This document shows, piece by piece, positions 5,650-64,000 of a stretch of DNA of 64,000 nt. Origin of the DNA: Blasia pusilla. Taxonomy: Eukaryota. The number at the start of each line of letters is the position of its first letter. Position 1 is the first letter of the stretch. The notes beneath the pieces are model-generated. The model saw only the letters and a program-made list of their open reading frames with translations, had not been told where the DNA came from and did not search any database. The position numbers and the translations under genes are program-made. The stretch lies in contig CM114271.1 in NCBI GenBank assembly GCA_050084515.1, positions 26,412,001-26,476,000 of the forward strand, in the 5' to 3' direction.

Positions 5650-6940
5650 TTGGGCATACGAGATGGATGATCGGGATAGAGGAATGCGTGGGTTTTTGGG
5701 AGTTGTGGGTACTGTAGAGTTGCATGATTTCATTGCAGAGTTAAGGTTTGGCGTGACACAAAAAGGGACACAAAATCCTGAGATTTCAGCATGGAATGGG
5801 ATACTCCAACACTTAGAGGGGACGCCCATGGACGATTAGTATGAGTTCTCCCATAGGTATGCAACCAAGATTGAGGCTTGGAGACTCTACTATGACCCAC
5901 ATTACATGTCATGGACTGAGCCATTTCCAGATGAAGAGGAGGATCTAGGGGAGGCTACTTCATGTGCCACTAATGTGACTTAGGGAGGGGTGAGTTGGAA
6001 TGAACTAATTGCACCATCAAGTCAGGTTCGTCCTAGGTTCAACCCCGTAGTTGAGTTCTTTGTAGAGTTGCGGAGGAACTACCAAGGGGTGCGGTCTTAG
6101 AAGTGTTGGAGCATCCACGACTTCCATAAGTGCATAAGGGAGAGTGTTATTGAGATATTCACTTGCTTGCATAGTTTGATCAAGGTCACTCAGGGAGTGT
6201 TAGAGGCCCAGACTGTTCACGCATGATATAAGATGCTAGAATGAGACTTGTGGAAACATATGAGGGATGCGGTACTATTGATGTTCACCTTATCTACGTT
6301 GAGAAATGCCTTTGAGATGGTAGAGTGCATTGAGTGCAACATGGCCAAGGAGAGTGTTGCAACCATGAGTTACGCTCAAGAGCAATCATGATTGTCTATA
6401 CCACATGTGTAGCAACCTAGTTTTGAAGAGAGGAGTGTGGCACCGTGAGCTCAAAGAGTCCATCATGAGCATGTGCAATAGTTATTAGTTACCCATGCCA
6501 TCATCTGCGGGTTGGTAGTAGTCGCAAGGAGTTATTTTTTGGGGCATGTGATGGAGCCCATTATCAACAAGATTGCACCCGTCAAGGTAGTGAACGTGTG
6601 ACTTAGGCCAGAGGAGTAGATGGGCCTACACAAGGAGTATATTAGTGTGATCATTTTCAGCCATATGGTTACACGTGCACTAGGTATTTTAGCTTTCACC
6701 CTTGGTTACTCCCGAATCAAGGGCCAAAGAGGGCACTAGAGGAAGTTGGCAGTCCGGGTGGGCTTAGAAGTTGTGCACCAAGTGGTTATGTAGGGGGACA
6801 TAGGGTCCTATTTTCACGTGGGGGTGGTGGATATGCCCCTAGAGGAGGTAGAGGTCCGTCACCTAGACAAGTCGAGGGAGACTTGGGGCATGAGATTGCA
6901 ATGGTTGCTCACATAGAGCAGTTACAGAAGTAGATTTCTG
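5650..6940 (+). mobile_element. Degraded gag of a relative of the DNMT-Gypsy element
   Basis: Recognisable similarity to 34255-35510: EMDD..GMRGF.GVVGTVELHDFI, QHLEGTPMDD, RDAVLL..TL..AFEMVE.IE.NM, two zinc-knuckle relics, HIEQLQ. Confidence 0.75.
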
Positions 6941-27431: not shown

Positions 27432-30400
27432 TTTTGGATACTTAACATCCACTTCTCTCCGCATCATCAATATGATCGGCCCCCTTATATGAGAAGAAGC
27501 CTAGATTGATGGTTCTGACTTAGACGTCGGAGAAATCATAGTAATATGACGTAGGTGGTTTATGGAGTAGCGTTACTAGGATTATCTAACCATATTTTGC
27601 ATAAGATGATGCAATATAATCCTATATTGCATCATCCTGAAATAGGTAAAAATAGGTTAAAAAAACCCTAGTTTCCCGAGTAGTGAAGTATTCGGGAGCC
27701 GCAACGGTAGCGCATTCTCGTATGTCGAGTTATCTCTATGTTTAGGTTCCATCGAAGCTCTTCTGTGAGCCACGAAAGGACTAGGCCACTTTATATCTCC
27801 AAGATTTATAACATATTTCACTGATTTCTTCACATTCTATTTTCTAACATTGTATCATAGCTATAGGTTTTCCAATAATTTGTATTTGGCGATCTAGTGT
27901 GTTTGCACAAATTCTTGAGAGATGGCTACTTCTTCGTTAGTTCTTGCTCGCCCTCGTCCGTTGGATGAAGGGAAGTTAGATGGGTCTAACTATACATTGT
28001 GGAAGTTCAAAATGAGAACTGTCCTCGAATCATTTGAGATGTGGGAGACGGCCATAGGGGTCTATTCAAATCCACAAGCTACTTTGAGTTCTGCACCTTC
28101 ATCTTCATTTGGTGATATCAATCATGTTGTATTGCTGGCGTGGAAATGTAGAAACGCTAATGCTCTATATGCTATTGTCACGAATGTGACTGATTTTGTC
28201 ATGACTTCATTCAACATACGGCCATTATTGCCGAGGCGTGGAACATTCTGAAGAACCAATATGAATGAGACTTGGATTCAGAATCTGGAGAATCACCTAA
28301 CGTCGGAGAAATTTTCAGAAAGAGAAAGCGCGAAGCAATTTTTTACAAGGATAAAAATTCTTCAAGATCAGATGGCGTCCGTAGGAATTTCAAAACTAGC
28401 AAAGATTTGGAAAGTCGATGCATAAGGATTTTGCCTCCAAGGTATGATAGTTTGGTCAATGCATTGACTACTCAAGTAAGACCACGGCTCATACACCGCA
28501 ACAAAATAAAGTTGTTGAGTGTAAAAACCGTACAATAGTGGAGATGGTAAGATGTATCACAAAAGCACAAGGTTTGACATAAGGATTTTGGGCTGAAGTT
28601 GTTAATACTACCGTTTATATTCTAAATAGAAGTGCTACCAAGTTATTGCAAGGCATGACTCCTCATCAAGAATACTCAAGTAAGATACCATCAGTCCAAC
28701 ACTTCAGGACTCTTAGTAGTGAGTGCTTTGTACATATTCTTGATGCATCTAGGACCAGGTTGGAGTCCAAGAGCAGGAAGTACATCTTTATGGGATATAG
28801 TGATTAGTCTAAAGCTTATCACCTATGATGTCCTAAGGCAAAGAAGATGCTTCTGAGTCGTGATGTGGTGTTCTAGATACAACATCGTCAAGTGGCAGAT
28901 ATCAATGGTTCGTCCATATTATCCTGAAACGAATAGATAAGCCACCAGAGCACATAATCAATGTTTACACTAGATAATCAAGAAGAAGAATTTGGTGATG
29001 ATTACAACGAGCAGCCTGATCTTCCACTACGGTCGTCGTACCCTAAGTGGATAAAGCAGCTCTTGGATGGTAAGGATCCACCAGCAACTGATGAAGTTGC
29101 TACACGTCCAAAGAGACTAAGAGACTAGAGGAACATAAAAGAGCTTCCGCACATCTCGTCAATATGGCCTTGATGACATAGGTCTTGAAGGTGGAAGATC
29201 CATCATGCTTGGAGGAGGCCCTTGCTCATTCTCAATGGAGAGAGGCCATGTAGGATTCTTTGAATAGCGTCCATTGTATGGATTGAAGCAAGCCCATAGA
29301 GTAAGGTATCAACGAATAGACACCTTCTTCCGAGAGAGAGGTCTCATCAAGAGTCCATCAGAAGCAAATCTGTATGTGTTTTGCAAAGATGGGATGTATA
29401 TGTTGATAGTCCTTTATGTGGATGATCTTATCATCACAGGAGACCAGAGCAAGAAAATAGAGGAAATGAAGGAAGTGTTGAAATCTGAGTTTGAAATGTT
29501 AGAGTTAGGTCTTTTGCACTACTTTATAGGTATGGACATTTGGCAACAGTCAGATTCTAATTTTCTCTCTTAGCAAAAATATGCTAGAGAAATCTTGAAG
29601 GTATTCGGGATGATCGAGTGTAAGGTAGTGGTCTCGCCAATGGAGGTAGAGTTGAAACTTTCAATGGAGGATGTTTCACCATTGGTAGTTGAAAAGTTGT
29701 ATAGAAAGCTTGTGGGCAGTTTGATATTTTTGTGCAACACAAGACCAGATATTAGCTTCGCTGTAGGAGTATTTAGTAGGTTCTCAACGAAGCCTTGTGA
29801 GATTCATCATTGGAAGGCAAGGATATGTGTGTTGAAGTACATCAAAGGCACTATCGAGTACGACATCACCTATGGAGGAGGGATGGAAATGACATCTTTT
29901 TGTGACTCGCATTGGGCAAGAGACTCAGAATCTCGCACATCTGTTTCAAATTATTATTTCTTGGTGGGATCAAGTGTGGTATCATAGGTCAGCAAGAAGC
30001 AACCTACAGTGGCTCTTTCTTCTACCAAGACGGAGTACAAGGCGGCTTGTTATGCTTTTATGAAGCAATATGGTTGAGATGGATTTTGGAGGACATAGGA
30101 GAAGCACCAGAAAGTGCTACTGTAATGTGGTATGACAATCAGAGTTGCATTGCCATAGCACATAATCTTGCGTTTCATGCTCGTACGAGGCATATAGAGA
30201 TTCAGTCTTATTTTATTCGTGAGTTGATTGAAAGAGAGGTTTTGAACTTTGTCAATTTGTCTCTTGTCCAATAGAGGATAACCATGCGGATATCTTCACC
30301 AAAGCCACGAGCAAAGATTAGCTTCAACGACATCTGAAGGGTCTTGGCATCGATCTAAGACAGTAGCCCACATGAGAATGATATTGAGGGGAGGTGTTGG

Positions 30401-30550
30401 ATTCTCAACATCCACTTCTCTAAGCACCATTAATCTAATCGGCCCTCTTATATGAGGAGAAGCCTGGATTGATGGTTCCGACTTAGATGTTGAAAGATTC
30501 ATAGTAATATGACATAGGTGGTTTATGGAGTAGCGTTACAAGAATTATCT
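27432..30550 (+). mobile_element. Internally deleted Ty1/Copia retrotransposon. 5' LTR 27432-27849, degenerate iMet PBS at 27850, PPT 30386-30394, truncated 3' LTR 30395-~30550
   Basis: Gag KLDGSNYTLWKFKM. Integrase end HTPQQN..E.KNRTIVEM. RT LYGLKQA, LYVDD, YRKLVGSL..TRPDI. RNase H ARTRHIEI. The two LTR copies match. Confidence 0.9.
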
Positions 30551-30554
30551 ATTT

Positions 30555-31386: not shown

Positions 31387-33198
31387 CTCACTAGAAGAAA
31401 TATGTGGTTTTTATTACTTAACTTTAAATAACCACCCGAAAGAATAATTCGAACTATGACTAAAATAGTTTAGTCATTGATTTTGGGGTTGTGCTACTCA
31501 TCTAGTCATTTTTCTATGACCCAAGTAGTTAGCAACATCCTTTAGTCCTAAAAAATTCATATTTCCTCACTTGTCCAAGATTTGTGAGTTATGAACAACG
31601 ACTTATGTTTTTAAGGATTTCATCCTCTAATCATATAATGTTTCTCATTTATCTTGGGATATAATTTGATTTAGGCATTTCGTTGTAATGAAGCATTAAC
31701 GCATTATTTCACTAAGACCCTAACACTTTCCATCACAAACCATCCATATATGGTCATACCAAGATTTGGAAGAATGCCCACATGGAATTTAGTACCACTT
31801 AAAATCTTTATATATTTTTATAATTTATTTTTATAATTTAATTTATAGTTGAAATGTTCATTTTCCCTTTACAATTTTATTTGGTGGGAAAACGTCCATA
31901 TTTCTTGTTAAAATTTCACCTTCATCTTAAAGAATACGTATGAGAATTTTTTTTATGATTAAGTGTCTTAAAACTACTTTGAGTGATGGGGCCAATAAAC
32001 GAGGAAGATCAATAACGGTAATGATCATTGTCTTTGAATGGTCATATCATGAGTATTCTTCTTTGCATTTTCTTCATATTGAAGCAACATTAGTTCCTGC
32101 CATTGGATTGAGTTGAAACTTGGAGGAGTGAATTTTTGTGAGATCCTCTATCACTTCACTAGATCAGATCTACCATTTAGTCTTCTATGATGAAACCATA
32201 ATTAGGAGACCACATTTTGGGTTTACCATTTTTTATTTCCTCCATCGACGATCATTTCAATATTTTTCATTCTGGCCTTGGATCCTAAAACCAAAGTGCA
32301 TATTGGGACCAAGTGGCATGATTTATGAACTCTTGGTTGAAGAGAAAAGTCAAAAAAGAAGAGAGAATGCAAACAGGAAGAGGAGAATATTAAGTGGAAA
32401 TATTTTAAATGTTCTTAACATTTTCATATTCATTTTAAAACATCATTTATTCCCACCATTGGATTGAACTAAAAGTTGGAGGACCTGATGTTAGGAAGAC
32501 CTCTCATTTGAATGGTTTAGATCTTCTATTTATTCTTCCATGATGAGACAAGAACTTGGAAACCAAATTTAAAGTTCGTGATTTTTATTTCCCTCTTTGG
32601 ATGGTCATTTTGAGAGTTTATTTTTGGTTTGGTTCTTGAGACCCAAGTACATATTGTAACTAAGTTGCATGATTTATGCATATGAATGATTTAATTATTA
32701 CCATATTTTATCAATTATTTTAAAAATATTTAAAATCATATATTTATTATTAGATGTATGGATTTTTAGCTCCTTAAAGACTTAAAAATAAAATAATATA
32801 AACATAGGAATTATTTCAAAAAATACAAAAATGAGTTTTAAAAAGTAAAAATATGCAAAAAAGGAAAATTCTTATTTTTTGTATTTAAATTTGTTACATA
32901 TTTACATACAATAATGTGTGGGCTAGTGGTAGGAGACTCCACTATGGGCCTAATGGTTCAGATTCGAATCTTGCCCAAGACGTGTTTTTGCAAACCAAGA
33001 TAATGAATATAAGGTGGAGTGTAGAAAGAAAACGTTGAGAGTTTGTAGCCGCCAAGGCTAGGGTTGCAAGGACGGCTAGGGCTAGGCGCGGCTACGTTTA
33101 GGACGCGGAGGCGAACAGGGTGCGGAGACGCACCCCCTTCCCCGCTCTTTGGGGAGGCCGTAAGGCCCCCCGCATTTATTCCCCCCCCCCCTTCTCCT

Positions 33199-33390
33199 CC
33201 CAACACTTGGGAGGCGCGCATTGGGTCACGTGCCCCCCCTACACAGGTGCATAGGGACATGGGCCAAGGGCGCGACGCTCCCCCCCTCTCCTTCCAACAC
33301 TTGGGAGGTGCGCATAGGGTCACATGCCCCCCCTACACAGGTGCATAGGGACGTGGGCCAAGGGCCCGACGCTCCCCCCCTCCCCCCCCT
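33199..33390 (+). repeat. GC-rich ~95-bp tandem repeat (2 copies)
   Basis: CCAACACTTGGGAGG...CCTACACAGGTGCATAGGGAC..GACGCTCCCCCC occurs twice. Confidence 0.85.
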
Positions 33391-34138
33391 TTGGGACGTG
33401 GTTGGCGCCTCCCACAAAACGTGGTAACCGGGTAGGGCGTACGTGGTAGCAATCAAGGAGATGTGGTAGCACTGCAGACAATGTGGTAGGCGGGCTGACA
33501 TGGTTGAGTTTTGACGGCGTTGAGTCAGGTTACATGCTGCGTGTGGGGATAGGCGGAGAGGTTTGCGCGACATGATGTTTTTGGGCGTGACGGGAGGATC
33601 GAGTTGATGTACGAGTAGATGGTTGTGGTTCGGAGGTTATCGTGTCACATGGAGGAGTGAGTGTTGACGGTGCGTAGGTTGGAGGACGTGATCAGGTTAC
33701 ACATTCAAGTCCCTTTTCCCGCACTTGTCATGTGTGATTGAGAGAGTTGGGTATCGGGTAGTAGATGGTGCTAGGTGGGTGCTAGGTGGGTGGAGTGATG
33801 GTGACGATTGTAGACTCTTTTCATGTGTAGCATGTTAGTGGATATACGGCGGTTGCCGCGTAGGGGTCGCATGTATGACCCGAGAGGTTAGGTGAGTGTC
33901 GCTAGGTTAGGTGAGTCAGTTGGGAGGCTCATGGTGAGCCCGAGTGTTGAGTGTGCATGAGGCCGGGTGTGTCATCACGGGATTGACGTTAGCATAGGTA
34001 AGCTAGTGAGGAGTGTGGGAGACTCTCGATGAGTTTGAGTGCTTGAGCGGGTGAGACAAGGTTTTCATCACGGCGTTCTTCTAGGGTTCGGAAGAACGGG
34101 GTAGTGCGAGCAGTAGTAAAGGAGTGACATAGAGAGGA

Positions 34139-35639
34139 GTGAGATACCGAGGAGTTACGAGTGAGGAGCTACCTCGACATCCATCCGTGGCTAGATCGTC
34201 ATCACTAGACACTAGGTCTGGTGACGAGATCGCAGATGGAGGCAGTATCACTTGGGAGGAGATGGACGATATGGGCTATGGAGGCATGCGTCGTTTCTCG
34301 GGTGCAGTGGGCACCATTGACTTAGATGATTTTATCCAGGAGTTCGACACGTGGTGCGACTTCCAAGAGATACGGACCTCGATACGGTTCAACCCTTTCA
34401 TGGCACGGAAGGGGTTGTTCCAGCACTTGGAGGGTCCTCCGATGAATGATTACATGGAGTTTCGATCACTATATTCAGTAGAGATTGATGCCTGGGAGGA
34501 TGTATTGGGCTCCAAGGTATGTGTCCACTAGTGGTCGCTAGGCATATGATGGGACTGTGAGAGGAGAGAGACCCACACCAATAGCCCGGAGAGTAGATGG
34601 AGAGAAGGGCAATGAGACAGGGGATGTGGCAGAGACCTCTGGTGGTAGAGGGCCACCCAACTTCAGTCCCACAATGGAGTTCTTTCGACAGTTGGGGAAG
34701 ATTTACCAAGGCGTATGCACCAACAAGCTGAAGAGTCTACATGATTTTCAACGACGATCGGGTGAGAGTCTGAGAGAGGCATTCACACCCATGAGGAGGC
34801 TGATCATTGCTACGTATGGAGTGACTGAGGTGCAATCAGTCCACTATTGGTACGGGGTTCTAGACGGAGAACCACGGGGGAGAGTCCGAGATGCGGTGTT
34901 GATTCACGCAACGAAGCCCACATTGAAGGTGGTCTTTGAGTTGTTTGAGCGTATTGAGCTCAACATGAGTGAGGAGCAAGTAGTGACCGTTGGATTTTCT
35001 CAAGAGTCGACGGGTCCATTTGGCGACGGTGACCCCACAGTGCCAAAGAAACACCATTACCATTCACAGAGCGGGCGGGGTGTGCCTAGAGAGCAGGGCG
35101 GGTACCGTGAGCCTATGAGGAAACGACCCGTACCTACATATGTTGCCCAACAGGGACCGATGTGGTCTTGTTGGACGTGTGGATGGGCCCATAGGCAGAG
35201 AGACTGCCCACAGCATGGGAGAGGACCACGAGCGCCTCCGATTGCTCAAGAGCCACAGAGGATGGTCCCACCACAGCCCCAGTGTGACTATTGCCACATA
35301 TATGGTCACACTAGGGATAGATGTTTTGACCTTCGCCGAGAGGCACGTCCAGAGGTAGGCCGAGGGCCTGGGGGCGGTCGTCTTGGAGGAGGTCCGGGAG
35401 TCCTTCCTCGACGTGGTGGTAGAGGACCACCACTAGCCAGAGGAGATGGAGCAGGAGCACCAGAGCCGACACTTCTCTCATGCATCGATCATTTGGAGCA
35501 GAGGATTGCTGCCATGACGATGATGCAGCTTAGGGAAGGCACGAAGCTGGGAGGAGGTAGTGTGACTCCAACTTCTACCTCTTACCATGACCCGGGTGAG
35601 GATCTTGCCAGTATGGGGTTTATGTGTAGTGCAACCTAG
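34139..35639 (+). pseudogene. gag: Gypsy gag, frameshifted near 34500-34560
   Basis: FSGAVGTIDLDDFIQEFDTWC, a QRRSGESLREAF major-homology-like motif, and two zinc knuckles CWTCGWAHRQRDC and CDYCHIYGHTRDRC. Confidence 0.85.
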
Positions 35640-36199
35640 GTTGAGGCAGCTGCAATGGTGACTCGGGATGCTGCGAGAGGCACTAAGCCATCGAGAGATG
35701 GAGTTGAGATTGACCCACCAGAGGGGACCGATGGGCGGCAGGCCAGGGTTCCACAGTCATTCACATTGTCGGAGGCAATATACACACCATCGATGGTGCC
35801 TCGACGACCAGCGGTGCCTACAGCTCAGGCACATATGTTGACTTCACGAGGAGTTGGAGTGATAACTCCTATGCCGGCTCGAGTGGAGTAAGTGTCGACC
35901 ATAGTGTTGGAGGTGGCCACCAGAGTGAGTCAGACTCCACTATTTTCCACCATAGAGTTGGCGACGTTAGGAGTTGGACCAGCTGAGGTATTCTGGCTGG
36001 CCGCCATATTGTGTGAGCGTGGAGAGATGACTGCTTCTTGTTCAGAGGTAGTTGAGGAGGTGGTGGACTTGCCCTCAGAGCCAGTGCTCGGGACGTTCCC
36101 CACAAAGTCATGGCATGCGGCGGCGGCGAAGTTGGTAGATATGCTAGCTCGACCGGCCATAGAGCGAGCAGTGGTGACACATGGAGTAGTGTTCTGAAC

Positions 36200-36600
36200 C
36201 GAGCTGGAGTATTTTTCTTGGTTAGTCCGACGGGGACAGTATACCAGCCGCAACGCGTCCTACTTGATTCAGGAGCACAACCTTTGATGTTAGGGAAGGC
36301 GGCGTGTTTAGCGTTGGGATTACGGAAGGCCGACATTGAGCCTTGTCCCTTCTAGATACAGACCTCGATTGGGGGCATGTCACCCATGTAGTATATGACT
36401 CGACAGGAGATAGTTGTCGGAGTCCAGCCAGAGCGTGCGACGGATAGTGCTATGGTGCGCACACGTGCGATTACAACACCAGCTGAGTCGTGCGATTATA
36501 ACACCAGCTGAGTCGTATGATGTGTTGGTAGGGAGTACAATGTTATATCCCCTAGGATTCATCCTTGACTTCTGGGAGGAGACCGTTGCTTATCGGCCAG
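36200..36600 (+). pseudogene. Retroviral-type aspartic protease domain
   Basis: RVLLDSGAQPL active site and downstream YDVLVGSTMLYPLG. Contains a stop at 36353 and a ~25-bp tandem duplication at ~36465-36516. Confidence 0.8.
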
Positions 36601-37007
36601 GATGGCGGTCAGGTGACGGGCGGATGAGTTAGTTACCCGTGCAGTTTGCGAGACGAGGTGGTCGATCACGAGGCAAGTGTGTGACCACGTTGGCAGCTTT
36701 CACAGGTAGTGTTAGCTGGCCAGGAGAGTTGTTGGATGGGAACGCACATGCGGAGGATGTCCCAGTAGCGGAAAGTCCCACGGAGAGACAGGCCATGGCG
36801 GATGTCTCTTCCCATGTTGGCGAGACCTCTTCACCATTGTGGGGTACGACTCGAGAGTTACAAAGGAGTACTGACGACCTCGTGAGGAAGGCGTGGAGTC
36901 ATGCTTTTATCCCGGAGCAGCGAGAGTCACGTGGCGATCGGGCTCTTGGAGTGGAGACGTTGACCCCACTGGATATCGCAGCCGTTGTGTGGCAGTGCCC
37001 AAAGGAG

Positions 37008-37960
37008 GGTATTAGGGCGTTAGATCTCTTCGGAGGGATTAGCACCGGATTGGCTGGAGTATTGCAGGCGGGCATACGGGTGCATTAGTACCTTTATGTG
37101 GAGAGAGATGAGACCACGCGGCGAGTATCATTACGTCACGTGGCAAGATTGGTCCAGAGATATCCTGAGTTGTTGCCGGTATCTGTAGTACGGGGATATC
37201 AACATACACTACCCGCCGACATCTCTTTGGTGGGGGTGCAAGATCTAGATAGAGTTGGCACCAGTCATTTGGTGATTGCTGGATGGCCATGTCAGAGTCA
37301 TTCACCAACTGGCCGAGGATTTGGATTGCAGGATCCGAGGTCAGGGATGTTTTGGGAGATGCTGCGAGTAGTACGACAATTGCAGGAGAGTCAGACATGT
37401 TCTCCAACGTATATTTTGGAGAACGTGGCGTTGTTGGGAGACACTCGTGCACGTGTCATGACGAGTGTGCATCAGGTGAGGTCCTGGTTGGGACGTGCTA
37501 TGTTGTTAGATGTAGCAAGAGTTGGATCACGTGCCCATCGTCCACGATTGTGGTGGACGAACCCGATACCATCATAGGTACTGAGTCAAGCAGACGATGG
37601 AGTCCAGAGAGCACCACATCTCACAATGGATTCTATTTTGGGCTCAGGGCATCGATCTCAGGTGGTGACATGGGATAATAGACCAACGTTGGCCATGGCC
37701 AATAGGGTGGGGAGTTGAGGTCATCCTTACCAAGGTTGGTGAGCTTCCCAGCATCCCATGCCTTTTGTCAGGGAGGGCCATGCATGATTTGGGATGAGGT
37801 GACTGGAGCATTGGAGGAGCCTACAACAGATGAGCGCGAGCGCGCCATGGGGCTCGCTACTGGTATTACGGTGGTGCCAGGGATGATTGAGGCATCCCGG
37901 AGACAAGTGTTGGGGTAGGCGATGGACCTCAACTGTCTCACATGGATAATCATCCTAGGT
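37008..37960 (+). pseudogene. DNMT3-like C5-cytosine DNA methyltransferase catalytic domain inside Gypsy pol
   Basis: Motifs in canonical order: I IRALDLFGGISTG, II YVERD, IV LVIAGWPCQ (Cys codon 37290-37292), VI YILENV (ENV 37419-37427), VIII DVARVGSRAHRPRLWWTN, IX DERERAMG, X RRQVLG*AM. Three in-frame TAG stops and one frameshift near 37710. Confidence 0.9.
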
Positions 37961-38379
37961 ATGGCTGAGCAGAGATGGATGCGAGTGTCATCCATGCCGT
38001 CACGTCCACGAGTTGGACCATTGCCTACAAGGTCTGTACAGGCATTGGTTGGGGACGAGACGAGGAGAGATAGGCACTCATGGACTTCCTGGGACGTCGT
38101 TCAAGCGGAGAGTGCGAAGGCGGCGAGAGTATCACATGTTCATTTTTTGGATGTGGAGCATGGTGTAGGAGGTCAGAGTGGAGTGGCTGTTGCAGAGGTG
38201 GCTAGGAATGCTACATAGCAACCAAAGCCAGAGGTTGCGTCCTCTCCAAGTGAGGTCACGATGGAGACTTGGGAGCATGGGATAGGTCTCAAGTTGATAG
38301 GAGGAGAGCGACGGCGAGTTCATAGGTTTCCGAGAGGGCATGTTAGTTGTTTTGCCTTCAGTATGAGAGACTTGGGTAC

Positions 38380-39700
38380 GTTGAAGGGTCCCGGGATACG
38401 GATTGAGTTGGCTAGTGATACGCCGATCTTTTGTCGACCCTACAGGTATTCTGATATGGAGCGAACCTTGATTTAGAGCAGGAGTCAGGACTTGTTGGAG
38501 ATAGGACTTATGGAGTTATCACATGGGGAGTATGCATCTACCACAGTCATGCTGGCGAAGAAGGATATGTATGGCAATTGGACGGATAGGCGGATGTGTG
38601 GAGATTACCGTCCTATCAACCGACAGACGAGGTCAGATCGATACGCCATGCCTACTCCTGAGGAGATCTTTGATGCGGTAGGGCATGCAGAGATCTTCAA
38701 TACTTTAGATCTCCGTGTTGGATATCATCAACTTCCTATCAGGTTGGAGGACAGGGAGAAGACAACATTCTGCGGGATAGATTAGTTCGGGAGAGATTGC
38801 TTATATCAATGGCGGTTCTTACTATTTGGGTTGAAGAATGCGCCTGTAGAGTTTCAGAGAGTGATGGATAGGATTCTGGCTGGCTTGGAGTTTGTACGAT
38901 GTTACATAGATGATATTCTTATCTTCAGTTCCACGCTTGAGGAGCATGAACGACACCTGGAGGAGGTGTTTGGGCGATTGAAGTTACATGGACTGAAGTT
39001 ACATCTAGGCAAGTGCAAATTCTTTCAGGAGCGGATTGAGTATTTGGGACACACCATATACCCGAGTGGGTTAGGCGTTCAGCAGACAAAGGTAGAGGCT
39101 ATTGCGCAAATTCCACGCCCTACAGATGTGAGTCGAGTCCGAGCGTTTCTTGGACTGACAAACTTCTATCGACGATATGTCAAGGGTTTTAGTGCGATCG
39201 CAAAGTCTTTGACCTTGTTGACGAGACTTGATCAGGTTTGGTTGTGGGGAGATGATGAGGAGCGAGCATTTCAGGAGCTCAAGGACACGTTGAGCTTCTC
39301 ACCCATTTTACAGAGATCGGTTAGGGGTCGCCCATTCCAGTTACATACGGATTGGAGCATGTTGGGTCTAGGAGCAGTGCTTACTCAGAGGGATGACGAG
39401 GAGAGGGAGTTTGTTGTGGCTTACGCGAGCTGATCGAACAACATTGCAGAGGCGAAGTACAGTTCCTATGAGGGAGAATGCTTGGCTATAGTGTGGGTCG
39501 TGGCACATTTCAAGTGCTATTTATTCGGCAACCCTTTCACACTTATCACTAATCATCAGCCGTTGAGGTGGTTGATGGAGTCCGACAAGCTTACGGGAAA
39601 GCTTGCTAGGTAGGCTCTATTACTACAAGAGTATGAGTTTGAGGTGGTTCATAGGCCAGGCCGGCTGAACTAGGATGCAGATGGGTTGAGTTGTAACCCA
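38380..39700 (+). pseudogene. Gypsy reverse transcriptase and RNase H
   Basis: RMCGDYRPIN, LDLRVGYHQ, FGLKNAPVEFQRVMD, YIDDILIFS, YLGH, FQLHTDWS..GLGAVL, VVAYAS. Same reading frame as the 3' part of the DNMT domain. Confidence 0.93.
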
Positions 39701-40048
39701 TGTCCGAGTCAGAGAGATGACACAGGAGCTCGATGGCACGGAGAGAGTGATGAGGAGATGGTGCCCGCTTGGCATGTATCTGCCTATCTTTGTTGGTTGA
39801 CTATGGCAGGTCAGCCACAGGTGATGACTCCAGTGGTGGAGTTGGATGATGAGTCTTTGGATCCAGAGGTCAGTGAGGAGGCGACAGGTGGTCGTGATAT
39901 CCATGACGACGTGGAGGTTGTGGAGTTCTTGCGCACCCGCGTCATACCGAGCATAGTGAGTGCTAGGGAGCGGGATCGGATCCTACAGAGAGCCAGGAGG
40001 TTCAAGTGGGAGGGGACTCACATTTTGGGGGGAGATGGTAGGATATGA

Positions 40049-41130
40049 GTGGTACCTCATCCTTCCCAGCGAGCACGTGTAGTGCGACATGCCCATGAGG
40101 AGTTGGGATATTTTCGAGTAAAGCGTACTTACAACTTACTCCAGGTTCAGTATTGGTGGCGTGGCATGCATACTGGGGTAAAGCAATTTGTGGCCAGATG
40201 TATGGTATGTGACAGAGTGCGAGCATCCTTCATTGCTCCCACTCCGCAGTTACATCCTTTGCTGATTATGGGTTTAGGTTATCGGTGGAGTTTAGACTTT
40301 GCGGGACCTTTACCATTGACGGGGCGTCATCATAGGTACGTGTTGGTCATGGTGGAGCATTTCTCCAAGTGGATAGAGTTGGTGGCACTACCGGAAAAGG
40401 CAAGCGAGGGAGCAACTTATGCGTTTCTAGATCATGTGATTAGTCACTTTGGTGCGCCAACGAAGGTATTGATTGACCAGGGTCCCGAGTTCAAGGGAGA
40501 GTTTCAGGCCTTGTGTGGTCATGCGCTGATAGATCACTGCACCACATTCAGAGATCATCCTGAGGCGGATGGGTTGGCGGAGAGAGTGGTACACACGGTG
40601 AAGAGAGGATTACTCAAGTATGGCTTGCAGCAAGGACACTTGAGGGAGTGGGACCTACAGTTATCATGGTTGGCTATGGGTTATCGCTTTAGTTGGCATG
40701 CATCTTTGGCGTCATTTTCACCGTACTTTTTGCTCTCTGGGAGAGAGCCATATTTACCTGTAGCCATTCGACGTGACATGGCGGAGGTGTTAGATCTTGA
40801 TGATCCAGATGTGTGGGTACAAGCATGTTCTCAGAGGACGGAGGTTTTTCGTAGAGTTATGCCTATGGCCTTTGAGAACTTAGCTATTGCTCAGCATAGA
40901 GATACATTGAGGTACGCGACCATTCGTGGAGGAGGTTATCGTCCAGGGATTAGGAGGTTTCATCCTGGAGATTACGTGTATTTACAGTAGGCGGCACCCA
41001 CGACGCTAGATGTCACTGCAAGGCGCACGATCCTACGTGTGCGCGAGGTATTACCGACCGGAGTCCTCAGGTTGGAGGGACGGGATGGTATGGTTTGGAA
41101 GGATCATGTGCGCCATGTCATCTTCCGAAC
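40049..41130 (+). pseudogene. Gypsy integrase (degenerate HHCC plus DDE core)
   Basis: HEELG..YWWRGM..CMVC, WSLDFAGP, IDQGPEF, HPEADGLAERV, SPYFLLSGREP, FHPGDYVYL. Confidence 0.92.
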
Positions 41131-41179
41131 GTAGACGATAGTGGATCCGAGCTTGGCAGTGGTACCTGTAGGCTTGAGG

Positions 41180-41316
41180 TATATGTTGTGCGGATCTGCA
41201 AGGGATGGAGCCACCATGTTGGTATGTGATGGTTGTTCTCGAGGGTGGCATATGTCATGTCTGACCCCCCCCCTCTTGATGTGGTTCCCATGGGATGATG
41301 GATGTGTCCAAGATGT
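41180..41316 (+). pseudogene. PHD finger at the C-terminus of pol
   Basis: (Y<C)MLC...MLVCDGCSRGWHMSCLTPPL. After a 1-nt slip in the C-run near 41265-41273 it continues DVVPMG*WMCPRC, completing a C4HC3 pattern. Confidence 0.85.
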
Positions 41317-41399
41317 GTATAGGGTAGTAGGTCATGTCAGAGAGATATGATATTTTCTATCTTGAGTTTGGGGGATCCAACTGCCAACTAGGGGGTGGT

Positions 41400-42155
41400 T
41401 GTGTGATCTCCATGTATATGTAAGAGTTGATTTTTGTACATGTGTGGATCGACCCGTGTGTGGGGAAGATCGATGTTGTGTGGTGTGGATGTGACCAACG
41501 ATGTATGTTGTGTAGCGATATGTATGCACACGATAGCTGTCACATCTGAGTAGCCAGTAGGCCGAGATCTATCGTGGATAGGCCGTAGGAGCCAGCGGAC
41601 TATCTTGAGTGTAACTTTGTCCCACGGTGTCGGATGAGGTTGAGGATAGGTCCATTGTGTCAAGAACGTCGTTTCTGACAACTTTTATGTTGACGATTTC
41701 ACAGCCGGGTGACTTGTTGACCAGGTCACCCATCCCTGGTAACCTGTGCACGCAGGTTACCAAGGGGATGGCTATTTTTAGGGGAAGAGCCTTTTGGCTC
41801 TTTCCAACCCTATATAAGAGAGGAAGATGGCTTTCCTAAGCCATCTTTCTCATGTTGGGCCGTTGGAGCATCTCTCTTGTATGTGTGTGAGATAGGACTA
41901 GGGTGCTAGCATCCGGATTCCTTGATAGCACAGGGTGGACGAGGCTCGATATGCCGATGTAGATTGAGGAGTGGAGTTTTAGGACAGGTGTGCCATTTTT
42001 ACTACTCTTTATTTTTGTTGTGTGATCTCCATGTATATGTATGAGTTGATTTTTGTATATGTGTGGATCGACCCGTGTGTAGGGAAGATCGGCGTTGTGT
42101 GGTATGGATGTGACCAACGATGTATGTTGTGTAGCGATATTGTATGCGCACGACA
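41400..42155 (+). repeat. 3' LTR of the DNMT-Gypsy element, with ~136-bp direct repeats at both ends (41400-41535 and 42019-42155)
   Basis: Follows the PPT, starts TG and ends CGACA. Internal TATA-like CCCTATATAAG at ~41808-41818. Confidence 0.7.
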
Positions 42156-42269
42156 GAAGGAGTTGATGGATGGATGGAGGGTGGGGCGCATGAACACATG
42201 AGTTGAATGAATGGATTAAGAATGGAAAACAAAATTGATGGACGGATGGAAGATGGAAGGGATACGGAT

Positions 42270-42395
42270 AGAGGGTGCGGCACATAGATAGAAGTAACAG
42301 ATGGAGAGTGCGGCATATGGATAGAAGTAACAGATGGAGAATGCGGCACATGGATAGAAGTAACGGATGGAGGGTGCGGCACATGGACGGAAATA
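42270..42395 (+). repeat. 33-bp minisatellite (about 3.5 copies)
   Basis: Unit GATGGAGAGTGCGGCACATGGATAGAAGTAACA. Confidence 0.85.
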
Positions 42396-44668
42396 ATGGA
42401 TGGAGGAATAGATAGACGGATGGAAGATGGGGCACATGGTTGGATGAAAGTTTTTGTTATTTAGTCGATGTCATCAAATCAGTTGCCACGTCATCTATAT
42501 GATATGGCAGTCATGTTAATATGATTCATATTTTCAAGCCATGTCAGCAAACCATGCTAGTCATTCAAATTATGTGGAAAATATGACTTGAGTTTTGTGT
42601 CTCTACAAGTAACTCGTCATTTTTTGTCCTTCATGGTGATATATGACTCATATGAGTCATAAAACCAAGGATTTCTTCTAGTCACTTTAGATCACATAAG
42701 TTGGATCAATCTGAACCTCAATCAAATTTATTTTCTGCAACTAATAACCTAGCTACTGTTGTAGTTTTGTCTTCTTATTTTATTCCACCTATGAAATGCG
42801 TCCTTACGCTTTGTAGTCCAGCTTTTGTTACGACATCTCAGAAGTATGACGTTTCATACACCATTTCCAGCAATTTGAGCGTGTTTTGTGTAGCTTCCAA
42901 TGCATGTACCTTCATAATTATGTCTTTTAGTATTTATACGATGCTATCATTTTTCGGATCATCAATGAATTGCATATTTTTACTATTTTGGCTTATGCTT
43001 TATTATTTATATTTATGTCCATATGCGTGTCTTTTCAAATTTTGTACGCGTTGGCTGCTTCAATGCATTTCTTAAGTCTGATCTGTATAAGAGATTTTGC
43101 TATTGCTATATTTCATGGTTGGGCTATGTTGTGCAAAAAAATAGCGGGTTGCACACTCCACTAACAATGATTATCGGACACCCTTAAAGAAAAATGCCAC
43201 TCTTTTCCACAAGCAACATAAGAAGGAGAAGTTGAAGGAACATCCCAATCTTCTTGGACATGGTAACCATGGTACCATGTTGGTCCAAATTTCCTGCCGG
43301 GTATACCAGTTCATATTTTTGACGTTGTTGTTTAACTCAACTCTGTCAATCTAAGGTACGATACAACACATTGCGTGACGTATAGACATATATTAGCCAA
43401 GATGAATAGAGTCACATCACCACAATTGCAGAGGTTCGAGAACACATTGATACTATTTCACTTAGGCTTCTCAGCTTACGTAAGTACATTGTTGATAACT
43501 ACACAAAAGACACATCTATTGTTGATGAAGTTTTCCATTTGCAATTAGTTATTCATGTTTGTAAGTTGATTTAACTTGCCTCTCTGAATTCCCAGCTACC
43601 TCTTTGAGCTTGTATGTACAATGTAGAGTGCATCTATGCTTTTTTACTTATAAAGAGAGTACAAATGAACATGAATATGGTTAGCATGTTCTAGGCAGTG
43701 TTTCTTAAGGGTGTTTGAGTTTAGCATGGAAGAGACCTGCTACTTTTTTTTGTGAACCCACACTTGTCTCGGCAACTTTAGTATGCATGCCTCTACCAAG
43801 TTAACTAATTTTCAGTAACACACACAAAATTTTGTGGCTTTTCTATGTGAACTCACTTCCCACTACATTGTGGTTTTTGTTCCAATCCCATCTAATGTAT
43901 GTCTTTGGAGTCATAGCAAGAGCATAATGAATGAAGTGTATCAACTTAAGCTTAAATCTATATATGTGTATGATTCAAATCTTTCCCACGGTCTCAGCCA
44001 CTATGCACTTACTATTGTATTTTTCCACTTTGAATGTTTTAACTATACTGTTGTTGATCAAGCGTAAGTATACATCACTTCATTTGAGGCAACTGTGAAC
44101 AACAACGCCAATACATTGTTCATCGTTTACTCTCAGGAACAACAAGTTACACAAAATGTACCCTAGACAATAACTACAGAGAGTCACAACGAAGCCATTC
44201 ATATTGCAACGTGCACTATAACATTTGTATACTACACATTACTTGTTGAAATAACATTTCTTTTCAATGAAACCAATATATATGGGTATTGAATTATTTC
44301 AATACATACTTCAATAAAGAATTAGATTTCTTACTTTAGGCTAACAATAAATAATTACCCCACCTATCTTTATTTTAAAAGTATGGCGCTCATTTTTAGA
44401 TATTTATAACAAATGAAAATTGATATGTTTTAATACAATTACAACCTTTTGTTATCTATATTCTTATTGGAGAGTGCGTTCTTGATGTAATCACATATAT
44501 TCTTGCCATGTGACAACTGGGTAGCAAGAAAGTATTTCTCATACTATCGACAACAACAAAAATAAATTTAATTTGCGTGCGACATGATTAGTCCCTTCAC
44601 TCTCATGCATGACATGAGTTGTACACTAGTTTGAACTAATAGTTCCAACTAAGATTTTAGTTTCCACC

Positions 44669-60346: not shown

Positions 60347-63300
60347 TCACACGAACCTCACTCGATAGCTGGATTCGTTCGGAGCTGCCGCCTTCCGCCG
60401 AGGCTGGGCTTCCGAGAGCATCGTCACGACGTCTCGCATGGACGGGCGATCTTTCGGCAGACGACTGGTGCACAGCAGAGCGATCCTCAACACTAGAGTC
60501 ATCTCCTCCTGGACGGAATAGCAACCAGAGCCCACATCCGGATCCAGCACCTCCAACAAACCCTCCTTCACTTGCATCTTCCTAGTCACCCACTCCACGA
60601 TGTTCACGGATTCGCCGAATTCCGTCGTCTCCACGGGCTGCCTGCCGGTCAGGAGCTCCAGGAGAACCACTCCGAAGCTGTAGATATCGCTCTTCTCATC
60701 GACCTTGAGGGTGTACCCGTATTCTGCAAGAAACCAACCTCGGAAAGTCAGTCATCCCGTCGTAAAGCGCGAGCTTGCTCGATTCGAGGAGGAGGTAATA
60801 ATCCGAGCTTCTAGCGTTTCACATCGTTCTATGAGAAAGTGAAGGTCGTCGCATCTGAAGACAAAATCTACTAGCATTCGACCGGAGACCGTTGCACATC
60901 GGGGCTTACATATGATGACTAGTCCCTCGGCATTCGCGAGGGAAGCGATGTAAGGCGAGAGCCCTGCGGAGCTAAAGATTAGATCAATGTTCAGATTGGA
61001 GGTTTTCTCAGATAGGCGTCTTGCGTCATCGCGGTGTCAAACACGCTCCGCACTCTCGACGTCGACCGACACTGAAGAATGACGACGCGATGTAAGTCCG
61101 AGCGCATTGATCGAGGTAAGGTTTCGACGAGCGTACCTGGAGCGATGTACCCGTAAGATCCGGCGACCAGCGACATGGACTGGTTGGTTTCGAATAGCTT
61201 GGCGAGCCCGAAGTCGGCGACTCGCGCGTCCATGTTGCTATCGAGGAGAATGTTGTTGGATTTGACATCCCTGTGCACGATAGGGGGAGAACAGTCGTGG
61301 TGCAAGTAAGCGAGCCCTTGCGCAACTCCCATGCCGATGTTGAACCTCGTCAACCAGTCGGCGAGGATGTTCACTTTCTTGCCCTCTTGTTTGGATCCAT
61401 TCTTCCACCCGTGCAGAAGCTCCCCAAGACTTCCGTTGGGCATGTACTCGTAGATCAGAAGATTAGTCTCATGATTGGAACAGAACCCCAAGAGGCGGAC
61501 GATGTTCCGGTGCCGAATGCTCCCCAGCAAATCGACCTCCGCAGAGAAGCCCTGATCCTTGCCTAGATGCACCTCGGGCTTACGACTCCCCCACAGTCTC
61601 TTGACCGCGACGATGTCACCTCCAGGAAACTCGCCCTTGAACACGGTTCCGGCCCCACCCATACCGATGACATTTTGGTCCTTCAAACACTCCACGACTT
61701 CATCGGCCGAGAAGTTGAGCCTTTGAAAAGTGGTCAAAATCCATGGCCACTCCGTCGGGATATTCCCCTTGAGCACACGGCGTATCTGCCAGCGGTACTG
61801 CTTGTAGAAGCAGCACACTCCGATGATGAGAACTCCCATGGCTACGAGAAAGATGCCCGCGATCATGAACGCCACAGGGCCCCCACTCTTCCCCTTCTTG
61901 GGCTCGCCGCTGCAAAGCCGCAGCACCTTCAGCCCGCACAAGCCTGGGTTCCCCACGAAGGAGCTGGCGTTCAAGAATTGGAACACCCCGGAGGTGGGAA
62001 CCGGGCCTTCGAGCTTGTTGTAGGAGACGTTGAAGGCGTCCAGAGTGGACAGGTTCTGCAGAGTGACAGGTATCTCACCCGTCAGCTCGTTCCTCGAGAG
62101 GTCGAGAGAAGCCAAGTCCATCATGTTGCCGAATATCGGTGGAATCTCCCCGTTCAGCCTGTTGTTGCTCAAATTGAGATTGACGAGCCTCGAGCAGTTG
62201 GACAGGGAAGGCGGAATGCTGCCCGAGAAGAGGTTTCCGGAGAGGTCCAGTACGCCGAGCGAGGAGACATTCCCGAATTGAGGGGGTATCTCGCCATACA
62301 AGCTGTTCCCCGTCGCGTAGAACTCCTGGAGGTTGTAGAAGGTCCACACGCTCTCTGTGGACGGGAAAACCCCCGAAATGCGGTTGAAAGACAGATCCAC
62401 AAAGGTGAGCTCGGAGGCACTTACGATGTCCGCAGGCAGACTCCCGTTCAGCAGATTCCTCGACAAGTCCAGGAACGCTAGGTAAGGCAGGAACCCAAAT
62501 CCAGGAGGTATAGCACCGGTGAGCTGATTGTTCTGCAGTCGAACTCGGTACAAGCTGGGGCAGCTGGCCAAGCCCGGGGGTAACGAACCGCTGAAGGCGT
62601 TGTTGAATAGGATGAGCCTCCAGAGCGCTCCGGACTTGCACAGCTCCGGAGGTATATCTCCCGTCAGGAGGTTGGACGAGACGTCGAGGTGGCCGAGGCT
62701 GGAGCTCAATCCCAGTCGCCGCGGGAGGCTTCCGCTCAGAGAATTGTTCCAGAGAAGAAGAGTGAGAAGATGCGGAAAATCCCCGAACGAAGGGGGGATT
62801 TCACCTGTGAGATTGTTGCCCCAGAGACTCAGCAGCCTCACCTGCTTCATGTCACCCAGCTCAGCCGGGATGGACCCGCTCAGGCTGTTGTTGGACAGAT
62901 CAAGACTCCAAACCGTAGACAAGTTCCCGATCTCTGGCGGTATGGACCCGGAGAGCTGGTTGTCGAAGAGGAAGAGAGAATTCAGTTTGGCGAGCTTCCC
63001 GAGCTCCGCAGGGATCTCGCCGGTCACATTAGCCCACGAAAAATCCAAGTAGGTGAGCTCTACGAGGTATCCGAGCTCGCGGGGGAGTGTGGTGGTGAAA
63101 CTATTGTATCCCATCTCCAGCCATGTCAAGGAAGTGAGACCTCCGATAGTCGGCGGAATCGACCCGGTCAGCTTGTTGCCCGCAAGGTTGAGGAACACGA
63201 GCTTCGTCAAGTCCCAGTAACTCGAGGGGATCTCACCGTGAAACGCATTTCCTCCTAAATGCAGATACACCAGCTCCGTCAATTTCCCGACCTCCTCGGG

Positions 63301-63825
63301 TAGAGCGCCGGTGTAGAGGTTGTCGTAGAGATCGAGCTTACGCAATGATCTGAGGTTCGATATTCCAGGGGGGAAGCTGCCGTTCAGATAGTTGGACGTG
63401 AAATTTAGGTAAGTCAGCGAGCTGAGGTTCGTAATTCCTGCGGGGATCTGCCCTGAGAGGCCGTTACAATTAAGATCGAGGCTTTGCAGGTCCGTGAGGA
63501 GACCGATTTCTTCCGGGATCGAACCCGTCAAATTCTTGTTCGAAAGGTCCAAACCCGTAACAATGCTGGAATCGTTTTCGGAAGCAGATACTTGGCTGCA
63601 GGTGACGCCTATCCATGTGCACGGAGACGGGTTGGAAGCAGTCCAATCGCTAAGCTGACCTACGGTGTCGCCGAGACCTTCCTTGACGAGCAAAAGATTC
63701 GCAACCACCTCGGACGTCGACAGGGCTGCCGCGCAAGAGATGTATGCGCACAGCAAGAAGTTGAGAGCGACAACGGACGACTTCGCGGCATGAGGAAGCC
63801 GCATTGCTCTGGAACTGCGCGGCAT
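60347..63825 (-). CDS. TDR: LRR-XI receptor-like kinase, TDR/PXY type. Exons: 63825-61137, 60723-60347
   Basis: Signal peptide, LRR N-cap (CTWIGVTC), about 20 LRRs, GNPGLCG and a TM helix. Juxtamembrane [21 protein letters not shown] is typical of PXY/TDR. Kinase motifs [53 protein letters not shown] with the canonical LRR-XI intron position. Confidence 0.9.
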
Positions 63826-64000
63826 TGCTGCTATCCAACTCGACCTCCCTATATTCTTCTCCCTAAACCGAACCTCTCAACGGCCCCTTCGCATCTATGA
63901 GTCGCACCCTCTGGACTGCCGCGTTCTGCCACTCTCTCAGAATTGCGCTCTAACGAAGAGAACACCGCGCGCATGGAATGCTGATTTCACTAACATACTC

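Follow-up and report, generated by a model that had tools for sequence, protein, structure and literature searches.

Cytosine methylation is the main way in which plants silence their transposons, and a transposon with a de novo methyltransferase of its own contradicts this usual picture. Whether such an element exists in a land plant is the question raised by a 64,000-nucleotide stretch of the genome of the liverwort Blasia pusilla (GenBank assembly GCA_050084515.1, contig CM114271.1, positions 26,412,001 to 26,476,000 of the forward strand; hereafter the window, with coordinates counted from its first letter). A first-pass annotation, made from the letters alone, had placed a DNMT3-like cytosine methyltransferase between the protease and the reverse transcriptase of a Gypsy retrotransposon at this locus. 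We find there a Ty3/Gypsy-type coding region on the plus strand, at approximately 34.26-41.32 kb, that runs from gag through protease (PR), C5-DNA methyltransferase (DNMT), reverse transcriptase (RT), RNase H (RH) and integrase (INT) to a PHD finger. The locus is very probably a decayed, non-autonomous copy of a high-copy liverwort family of Ty3/Gypsy type, in which the gag-pol frame encodes a DNMT3-type methyltransferase between PR and RT and a PHD finger behind integrase.

The methyltransferase domain and the PHD finger

The coding region was read from stop-to-stop open reading frames (ORFs) and from read-through translations with X at stops. In the read-through translations, Pfam matches follow one another on one strand in the order DNA_methylase, RVT_1, RT_RNaseH, Integrase_H2C2, rve, and PHD. 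The order that defines Ty3/Gypsy elements, PR-RT-RH-INT, is present on one strand with gag upstream, and a complete and collinear methyltransferase lies between the protease (with its LLDSGA motif) and RT, where the first-pass annotation had put it. RT, RNase H, and integrase share the reading frame of the 3' half of the DNMT domain, also as that annotation had it. Marchantia proteins stay collinear with the window from gag through the whole DNMT, and one of them, P0289, extends into RT-RH (tblastn).

All six strings that had been quoted as methyltransferase motifs occur in the translation, in canonical order: LDLFGGISTG (~37020-37049), LVIAGWPCQ (37266-37292), YILENV (37407-37424), and AHRPRLWWTN (37527-37556) in frame 3, followed by ERAMG (37838-37852) and RRQVLG (37898-37915) in frame 2. 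We take these to be motifs I, IV, VI, VIII, IX, and X, respectively, of the standard nomenclature. The catalytic cysteine (PCQ), ENV, and RxR are intact. The domain is present where it was first reported, at 37008-37960, and its extent proved somewhat wider, ~36990-37993. Its N-terminal part alone matches PF00145, as anticipated (E 5.7e-8, 33 bits against a gathering cutoff of 22), and relatives score 25.6-45.5 bits against the same family.

To which class of methyltransferase does the domain belong? The best match of its N-terminal part in the PDB (phmmer) is DNMT3A (E 4e-6, query residues 125-310); the C-terminal piece alone has no meaningful match there (E 1.1) and is recognised only through the family profile. 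This profile, built from 24 family DNMT sequences and searched against the PDB, finds DNMT3A (E 3.7e-26, 95 bits), DNMT3C (2.4e-24), and DNMT3B (3.6e-23; 84-95 bits for the three), ahead of tobacco DRM (1e-12, 51 bits), Arabidopsis DRM2 (2e-10; DRM chains 43-51 bits), M.HhaI (1.5e-7, 34 bits), and DNMT2 (0.01, 18 bits); at E<=1 the list contains neither DNMT1 nor CMT chains. The DNMT3 affinity remarked on in the first-pass annotation is borne out. The profile is collinear with the DNMT3A chain 2qrv_A over residues 10-49, 67-218, and 245-286, the last of these holding motifs IX-X, and collinearity through motifs I to X implies a domain without a DRM-like permutation. In the AlphaFold model of a Calypogeia relative, P0280 (66-68% identical to the window domain), the DNMT part has a predicted local distance difference test score (pLDDT) of 83-97. 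Foldseek ranks 1-50 for this model are all DNMT3A/B/C chains, the best being 6f57_D (E 2.6e-17, target-normalised template modelling (TM) score 0.83), and catalytic domains of DNMT3A/B bound to DNA are matched along their full length (TM 0.79-0.83). Pfam matches to PWWP or ADD domains were found neither in the window nor in 11 scanned relatives; according to PMC12344493, DNMT3 orthologues differ in their companion domains, so the absence of these two does not exclude DNMT3 membership. Both the family profile and the fold of a relative place the domain nearest to DNMT3A/B/C.

In intact copies, the methyltransferase would be made within Pol and, judging from sequence and modelled fold, would on balance be an active de novo cytosine methyltransferase. 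That the domain is instead kept for another role, such as methylating RNA, methylating host DNA in a way that disturbs silencing, or serving Pol as a structural module that binds DNA or S-adenosylmethionine, we regard as improbable. Such a role would fit the variable position of the domain (PR-RT in streptophytes, RH-INT in chlorophytes), which suggests tolerance of context, and DNMT activity is predicted here from sequence and the fold of a relative only; in addition, the main text of de Mendoza et al. (2018, PMC5890265) reports that the tested SymbioLINE DNMT gave no DNA methylation in yeast and proposes an RNA substrate. Against it stand the conservation of all residues for DNA C5 methylation (the PCQ cysteine, ENV, RxR, and GN-type motifs), the fold match to DNA-bound catalytic domains, and the poor score of the RNA-methylating relative DNMT2 beside that of DNMT3A; the nearest tested analogues, the SymbioDIRS-Dnmt3 domains, methylate CG de novo according to the same text. 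A de novo DNA methyltransferase remains the reading that we favour.

The second chromatin-related module, the PHD finger, stands behind integrase in the window and in relatives of both domain orders described below. The nearest PDB neighbours of the intact finger of relative P0350 are KDM5/Lid, KAT6A, CHD4, PHF12, DPF2/3, BAZ2A/B, ATXR5, PHF21A, UHRF1, and AIRE. Most of these presumably bind the histone H3 tail with unmethylated lysine 4 (H3K4me0). PHD fingers in retrotransposons are as such already known, as the accessible text of PMC6673714 attests.

Abundance, relatives, and conservation of the family

Is the methyltransferase a property of the family or of this one locus? Reads carrying the same species label were mapped to 34100-41400 at a likeness of at least 85%, from one genomic run (~1% of it read) and three RNA runs. 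Summed genomic depth is ~950-1115 in six bins across 36540-38003; the bins of gag and PR reach 830-1100 and those of RT-INT 1200-1650. Of 66265 genomic reads, no more than 97 are at least 99% alike to the window, equivalent to ~2x depth; set against the total, this corresponds to several hundred copy-equivalents (~500x single-copy depth). The methyltransferase part belongs to most copies of the family and is no one-off capture, the outcome that would have undone the first-pass annotation; uninterrupted homologous polyproteins agree with the read depth on this. Within the domain, a variable stretch lies between motifs I and IV (37178-37267), where 130 genomic and a few RNA reads skip or replace ~88 nucleotides and 424 genomic reads end loosely at 37267; a sub-family differs in this stretch.

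The three RNA runs yielded 1159, 1154, and 1268 mapped reads, nearly all with the first mate on the minus strand, which indicates sense RNA given the usual stranded libraries, and the DNMT bins are covered in sense. The reads are mostly 85-95% alike to the window and hence derive from other copies. In the interval between RNase H and integrase (39606-39726), one to three reads in each of the three RNA runs have 119 nucleotides swapped for 25 other letters, a change seen in no genomic read of the 1% sample; it could reflect a variant copy or a processed transcript.

In a scan of 1.84 billion representative proteins, 1657 matched at E<=1e-3; of these, 442 reached E<=1e-10 and 20 reached E<=1e-30. 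Many are 1000-3400 residues long and carry the matching part centrally. A word-indexed search aimed at longer proteins returned 30 matches at E<=1e-10. Of these, 14 are gene models of Marchantia polymorpha, with identities of 46-64% and, for most, a coverage of 97-99% of the query (Mp_4g09160, Mp_8g17980, Mp_6g11220, Mp_8g15430, and Mp_2g26090 are examples); one protein comes from Calypogeia fissa, two come from Sphagnum, and two from Closterium; vascular plants are not represented among these 30, which is weak evidence of their absence. A profile search found 194 matches among proteins of 1321-3770 residues, the named ones being from Scenedesmus, Haematococcus lacustris, and Chromochloris zofingiensis. 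At least 14 'hypothetical protein' models of M. polymorpha (among P0281-P0298) are gag-PR-DNMT(-RT) pieces of the DNMT-Gypsy family, and one Marchantia model carries the UniRef name 'DNA (cytosine-5)-methyltransferase'.

Several relatives are uninterrupted. P0314 (2138 residues) is a single ORF encoding CCHC, DNMT, RT, RH, and INT; P0350 (2358 residues) is a single ORF encoding PR, DNMT, RT, RH, INT, and PHD; and P0322/P0036 and P0369 run without a break from DNMT through RT to INT. These proteins bear directly on whether the window holds a chance juxtaposition, that is, a fragment of a host DNMT3 gene or pseudogene lying beside, or interrupted by, an ordinary Gypsy element. The stops, the frame changes, and the lack of recognisable long terminal repeats (LTRs) mean that continuity in one ORF cannot be demonstrated at the window locus alone. 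Elsewhere, however, the same order is found in the uninterrupted ORFs just named, with the PHD finger added in P0350; DNMT is followed by RT in 19 of 223 proteins with both DNMT halves, none of them a host-type DNMT3; read depth is ~500-fold over the DNMT just as over gag and PR; and Marchantia has its host DNMT3 in another gene, Mp5g09290, which is not among the matches. We give chance juxtaposition hardly any credence and read the domain as part of the element's own polyprotein.

Among the 223 proteins with both halves of the domain, there are two arrangements. RT-RH-DNMT-INT fits 142 of them (119 complete, 17 with DNMT-INT, 6 with RT-DNMT), the 19 already mentioned have DNMT-RT(-INT) as in the window, and 62 show the DNMT domain alone. 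The window-type order also occurs in Marchantia polymorpha, Calypogeia, Sphagnum, and Closterium, and the chlorophyte order is RT-RH-DNMT-INT-PHD. A maximum likelihood tree of 102 non-identical DNMT domains (quick search, LG+G4, midpoint root, no outgroup), all of them family domains, separates the two orders. Its intake was a BLAST match of 250-420 residues reaching both domain ends, a filter that the Sphagnum rows failed, so that they were dropped. The 10 rows in which DNMT precedes RT all group with the window, liverworts, and Closterium in one half of the tree (36 rows). Of the 51 rows with the alternative order, 50 belong to the second half (66 rows), which includes Scenedesmus; the split has a support of 90 in the approximate likelihood ratio test (SH-aLRT). 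The window lies in a clade of 14 with Calypogeia and Marchantia (support 100), and ten further look-ups showed a well-supported clade next to the liverworts to be Closterium throughout. The Marchantia copies are near-identical (end branches of 0.003-0.1), which suggests recent amplification.

Across the 102 aligned domains, FGG, PCQ, ENV, HRxR..WTN, ERE..G, and LG show at least 90% conservation and persist in the window copy, and ERERAMG and LG.AMD are conserved across the family. Averaged over the 111 polyproteins that hold all three enzymes, the DNMT N-terminal part has 34.9% identity to the window, RT-RH 36.6%, and INT 43.2%; DNMT similarity equals or exceeds RT-RH similarity in 31 of them. 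Such conservation is what a functional domain would show.

Several observations weigh against the reading of this locus as a member of a transcribed family with a working, chromatin-directed methyltransferase. The window copy itself cannot encode the enzyme, since the DNMT domain holds three stops and one frame change. Repeat searches, self-BLAST, and flank alignment turned up neither a pair of LTRs nor a clear primer-binding site nor a target-site duplication. RNA reads at least 99% alike to the window number only 3-6 per run, so that the evidence for transcription concerns the family rather than this locus. RNA depth is ~3-10 over the DNMT and ~20-45 over RT-INT, four to five times lower, whereas in DNA these regions differ 1.2-1.5 fold; this steeper drop in RNA suggests that the transcribed copies may be diverged in the DNMT part or partly without it. 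One Marchantia gene model, P0292, breaks the pattern of the tree with a DNMT followed directly by INT, which we take as a probable gene-model artefact. The case for purifying selection on the DNMT consists of motif and identity conservation, and would to that extent be indirect. Finally, a role of the family PHD finger as an H3K4me0 reader is a lead by analogy, drawn from the specificities of structural neighbours.

Two of these points, the dead window copy and the lower RNA coverage over the DNMT than over RT-INT, would also suit a decaying passenger, captured once in an ancestor, spread by hitch-hiking in a burst, and now neutral in the liverwort family. Yet catalytic motifs are intact in liverworts, Sphagnum, Closterium, and chlorophytes at 35-68% identity, the DNMT is about as conserved as RT-RH, a neutral domain would not outlast such divergence, and the near-identical Marchantia copies still carry it. 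We consider a passenger very improbable, and a domain maintained by the family the better account.

Known methyltransferase-bearing elements and proposed roles

Among elements described so far, the nearest is KnitGypsy-Dnmt3 (de Mendoza et al., 2018, PMC5890265), found in the charophyte Klebsormidium nitens; the first-pass annotation had cited this report correctly. As presented in the main text of that paper, it shares with the window element an intron-less, non-rearranged DNMT3-type domain in the Pol ORF of a streptophyte element of Gypsy composition, with the catalytic residues kept; its Ka/Ks is below 0.2, and de novo CG methylation is reported for retrotransposon DNMTs. The likeness is one of description, no K. 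nitens sequence being among the named protein matches. The present family belongs to a land plant, a liverwort, and its relatives occur in Marchantia, Calypogeia, and Sphagnum; it stands at several hundred copy-equivalents, in contrast to the few copies given for K. nitens (PMC5890265). The liverwort family has a C-terminal PHD finger, and the word 'PHD' appears nowhere in the main text of PMC5890265. KnitGypsy-Dnmt3 is described there with a DIRS-like repeat arrangement, whereas no repeat pair was found for the window element. The same main text describes SymbioDIRS-Dnmt3 and SymbioLINE-Dnmt of Symbiodinium, which likewise are retrotransposons bearing a C5-methyltransferase, under purifying selection in their case; SymbioDIRS-Dnmt3 is of DNMT3 type, and two domain orders coexist among the Symbiodinium elements, as they do between the streptophyte and chlorophyte branches here. 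They differ from the window element in being DIRS (with tyrosine recombinase) and LINE elements of another eukaryotic supergroup, reported as independent acquisitions (PMC5890265).

Host DNMT3 enzymes (animal DNMT3A/B/C; MpDNMT3b, Mp5g09290, of Marchantia) share the catalytic motif order and the fold (TM 0.83 over ~283 residues, at 22-24% identity). Unlike them, the family domain lacks PWWP and ADD domains as well as introns and is set between PR and RT of a polyprotein, with a chromatin-reader module, the PHD finger, at the far end behind integrase. Chromoviruses, whose integrase has a C-terminal chromodomain, offer a parallel in that a histone-tail reader is fused behind integrase. Readers in this position are generally thought to guide integration. 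Unlike in chromoviruses, the reader here is a PHD finger, and it is joined with a DNA-methylation writer in the same polyprotein. A toolkit of methyltransferase and chromatin reader is also found in EpiLTRs (DAM, DNMT, chromodomain), whose DNMTs, according to the accessible text of the preprint (bioRxiv 10.64898/2026.05.21.726589), differ from that of the window in grouping with DNMT4, in accompanying an adenine methyltransferase, and in occurring in Euglena and Colponemidia-type protists. That text treats 'streptophytes (Gypsy-DNMT3)' as a separate, earlier case, and a 2025 paper (PMC12344493) also cites the KnitGypsy source.

The literature searched, with subscription journals and supplements outside its reach, holds no description of DNMT-bearing Gypsy elements in land plants or of the Marchantia models, and its only streptophyte precedent is the low-copy Klebsormidium family; an abundant, transcribed kind is now seen in a liverwort. 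The PHD partner, the two orders following the streptophyte/chlorophyte split, and the high copy number are possibly new at the level of the family. Relatives have gone unnoticed as 'hypothetical proteins' in M. polymorpha, Calypogeia, and Sphagnum, while the sister branch fills chlorophyte genomes, and annotators should be aware that PF00145 matches in bryophyte gene sets include transposon genes. Since these relatives occur in organisms that can be transformed and knocked out and whose methylomes are mapped, it is practical to test whether the enzyme is active, what it targets, and how it affects the host methylome.

What might the element gain from the enzyme? Tentatively, and with less assurance than for activity as such, the particle may carry the methyltransferase, or intact copies may release it, and its target may be freshly made cDNA of the element or the site of insertion. 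Somewhat more doubtful is that the integrase-linked PHD finger would steer integration, or the enzyme, to silent chromatin without H3K4 methylation. PHD and DNMT together could be regarded, by analogy with the catalytic and ADD domains of animal DNMT3, as a writer-plus-reader kit. The main text of de Mendoza et al. (2018, PMC5890265) lists as possible benefits the evasion of foreign-DNA recognition, protection from deaminases, the setting of the chromatin state at the insertion, and self-restraint that spares the host; the window data do not discriminate among these.

A still broader proposal, which we think unlikely as a whole, is that DNMT3-Gypsy elements form an ancient Viridiplantae-wide lineage with a DNMT3 writer and a PHD reader of H3K4me0 type, in which a streptophyte branch has DNMT before RT and a chlorophyte branch RH-DNMT-INT; the streptophyte branch would have come onto land and be abundant and transcribed in bryophytes, including M. 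polymorpha, with enzymes that may be active and add to the host methylome. In Mpmet mutants, transposons are released and non-CG methylation rises, according to the accessible text of the preprint 10.1101/363937; that transposon DNMTs contribute to this non-CG methylation is speculation. The accessible text of Schmid et al. (2018) lists five Marchantia methyltransferases with no DNMT3 among them. The idea that Marchantia has no host DNMT3, its transposon copies being its only DNMT3-type genes, was rejected, as MpDNMT3b (Mp5g09290) exists and has been studied (preprint 10.1101/2021.02.12.428880, accessible text).

Coordinates, decay, and surroundings of this copy

Table 1. Parts of the DNMT-bearing Ty3/Gypsy-type coding region in the window.
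Feature	Position	Strand	Details
gag-like region	34262..35639	+	frame 2 to 34495, then frame 3
aspartic protease region	36191..36496	+	frame 2; LLDSGA at 36260-36277 (ORF translation)
conserved protease-DNMT spacer	36495..36989	+	no recognised domain
DNMT3-like C5-DNA methyltransferase, N-terminal part	36990..37712	+	frame 3; motifs I, IV, VI, VIII, start of target-recognition region
frame change inside DNMT domain	37708..37712	+	frame 3 to frame 2
DNMT3-like methyltransferase, C-terminal part	37709..37993	+	frame 2; motifs IX, X
reverse transcriptase	38585..39058	+	Pfam RVT_1 E 6.9e-28, P0002 residues 336-493
RNase H, RT-RNaseH type	39245..39634	+	Pfam RT_RNaseH E 7.5e-31, RT_RNaseH_2 E 1.8e-28, P0002 residues 556-685
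integrase, H2C2 zinc domain and catalytic core	40061..40546	+	Pfam Integrase_H2C2 E 8.6e-14 (828-882), rve E 1.5e-12 (901-989)
PHD finger, pol C-terminal end	41186..41319	+	Pfam PHD E 3.8e-6, 27.3 bits against cutoff 24

Parts of the coding region with faint or no Pfam matches (Table 1) are supported by relatives. Two strings in the gag-like region resemble Cys/His knuckles, and TAG stops interrupt its frame at 34539 and 35637; the region's only Pfam match is a weak one to a zinc finger (E 0.0025, under the cutoff), Marchantia proteins P0281-P0287 align collinearly from 34262 (tblastn), and a zf-CCHC lies upstream of the DNMT in relatives P0024 and P0314. The protease piece, bounded by frame changes at ~36190 and ~36495 (tblastn frames, P0289) and with two in-frame TAGs inside, matched no Pfam family; PF13650, an aspartic protease, is precomputed for relatives P0301, P0329, P0330, and P0350. 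The spacer between protease and DNMT also has no Pfam match, and its counterpart in the AlphaFold model of P0280 is of low confidence (pLDDT mostly <60). It is spanned by tblastn blocks with 54-57% identity to liverwort proteins (36477-37712 for P0280; 36489/36495-37712 for P0286 and P0289). The PHD finger is decayed, with a frame change near 41265 (tblastn frame switch at 41266).

By tblastn with liverwort homologues, the copy resolves into six collinear frame segments, namely 34262-34495 (frame 2), 34497-36188 (frame 3), 36191-36496 (frame 2), 36495-37712 (frame 3), 37709-41275 (frame 2), and 41266-41319 (frame 1), and hence five frame changes. Across these segments there are 19 in-frame stops (15 TAG, 3 TGA, 1 TAA), three of which, the TAGs at 37086, 37575, and 37916, lie inside the methyltransferase. 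With 19 stops and five frame changes, the window copy is dead. The frame change in the DNMT is at ~37708-37712 rather than at 37577-37706 as the ORF list implied, frame 3 passing through the TAG at 37575 to reach 37712, and the switch falls at 37709-37712 in 12 of 14 tblastn query proteins. A one-base length difference at 37708 in 595 of 943 genomic reads implies that this break is private to the window copy or its sub-lineage. Similarly, at the TAG of 38783-38785, the window is at odds with 406 of 475 reads at the first position and with 430 at the second, which places this break, too, in the window copy or its close kin. At 602 positions the window disagrees with 20% or more of the genomic reads; it has A/T against G/C in the reads at 303 of these, and the reverse at 132. 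The observed/expected ratio of CpG is 0.70 in the element compared with 0.95 in a neighbouring kinase gene. This decay looks like that of methylated plant repeats, and the copy may have been inactivated by the transition mutations typical of such repeats.

Direct and inverted repeat searches and self-BLAST found no direct-repeat pair flanking the coding region. The best gapped local alignment of the flanks scores 470, compared with 270-335 for 5 shuffles, and a motif of 55-85 nucleotides recurs at 30.6/31.3 kb and 41.5/42.1 kb. One candidate primer-binding site is a TGG-initiated string at ~33403. Just upstream of gag is a 94-nucleotide tandem duplication (33186-33385), and downstream of the PHD finger are a 140-nucleotide direct repeat, 94% identical and 619 nucleotides apart (41398-41536 and 42017-42156), and 33-nucleotide tandem repeats (42264-42428); these repeats, from which the motif of 55-85 nucleotides derives, may be remains of repeat-rich LTRs. 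A dispersed repeat unrelated to the DNMT element has copies, 82-88% identical, at 1094-2030, at 29716-30551 (inverted), and at 27434-27588; its end at 30551 may mark the upstream border of the DNMT element insertion.

Elsewhere in the window, a second gag-like fragment (5678-6406, plus strand) resembles the N-terminus of the same Marchantia DNMT-Gypsy proteins, at 36-39% identity. Neither a methyltransferase nor pol was detected next to it by tblastn, and it is probably a remnant of another member of the wider group. The kinase gene mentioned above (60991-63876, minus strand) is a leucine-rich repeat (LRR) receptor-like kinase with an open frame of 961 amino acids, comprising LRRNT_2, many LRRs, and a kinase domain that is cut at its C-terminal end, probably by an intron. 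Its identity is 80% to Marchantia paleacea, 77% to Calypogeia fissa, 69-71% to Riccia, and <=50% to seed plants and ferns, which marks the contig as nuclear DNA of a liverwort other than those compared and agrees with the land-plant origin assigned to this DNA in the first-pass annotation; its seed-plant relatives are named MIK1/PXL/TDR-type.

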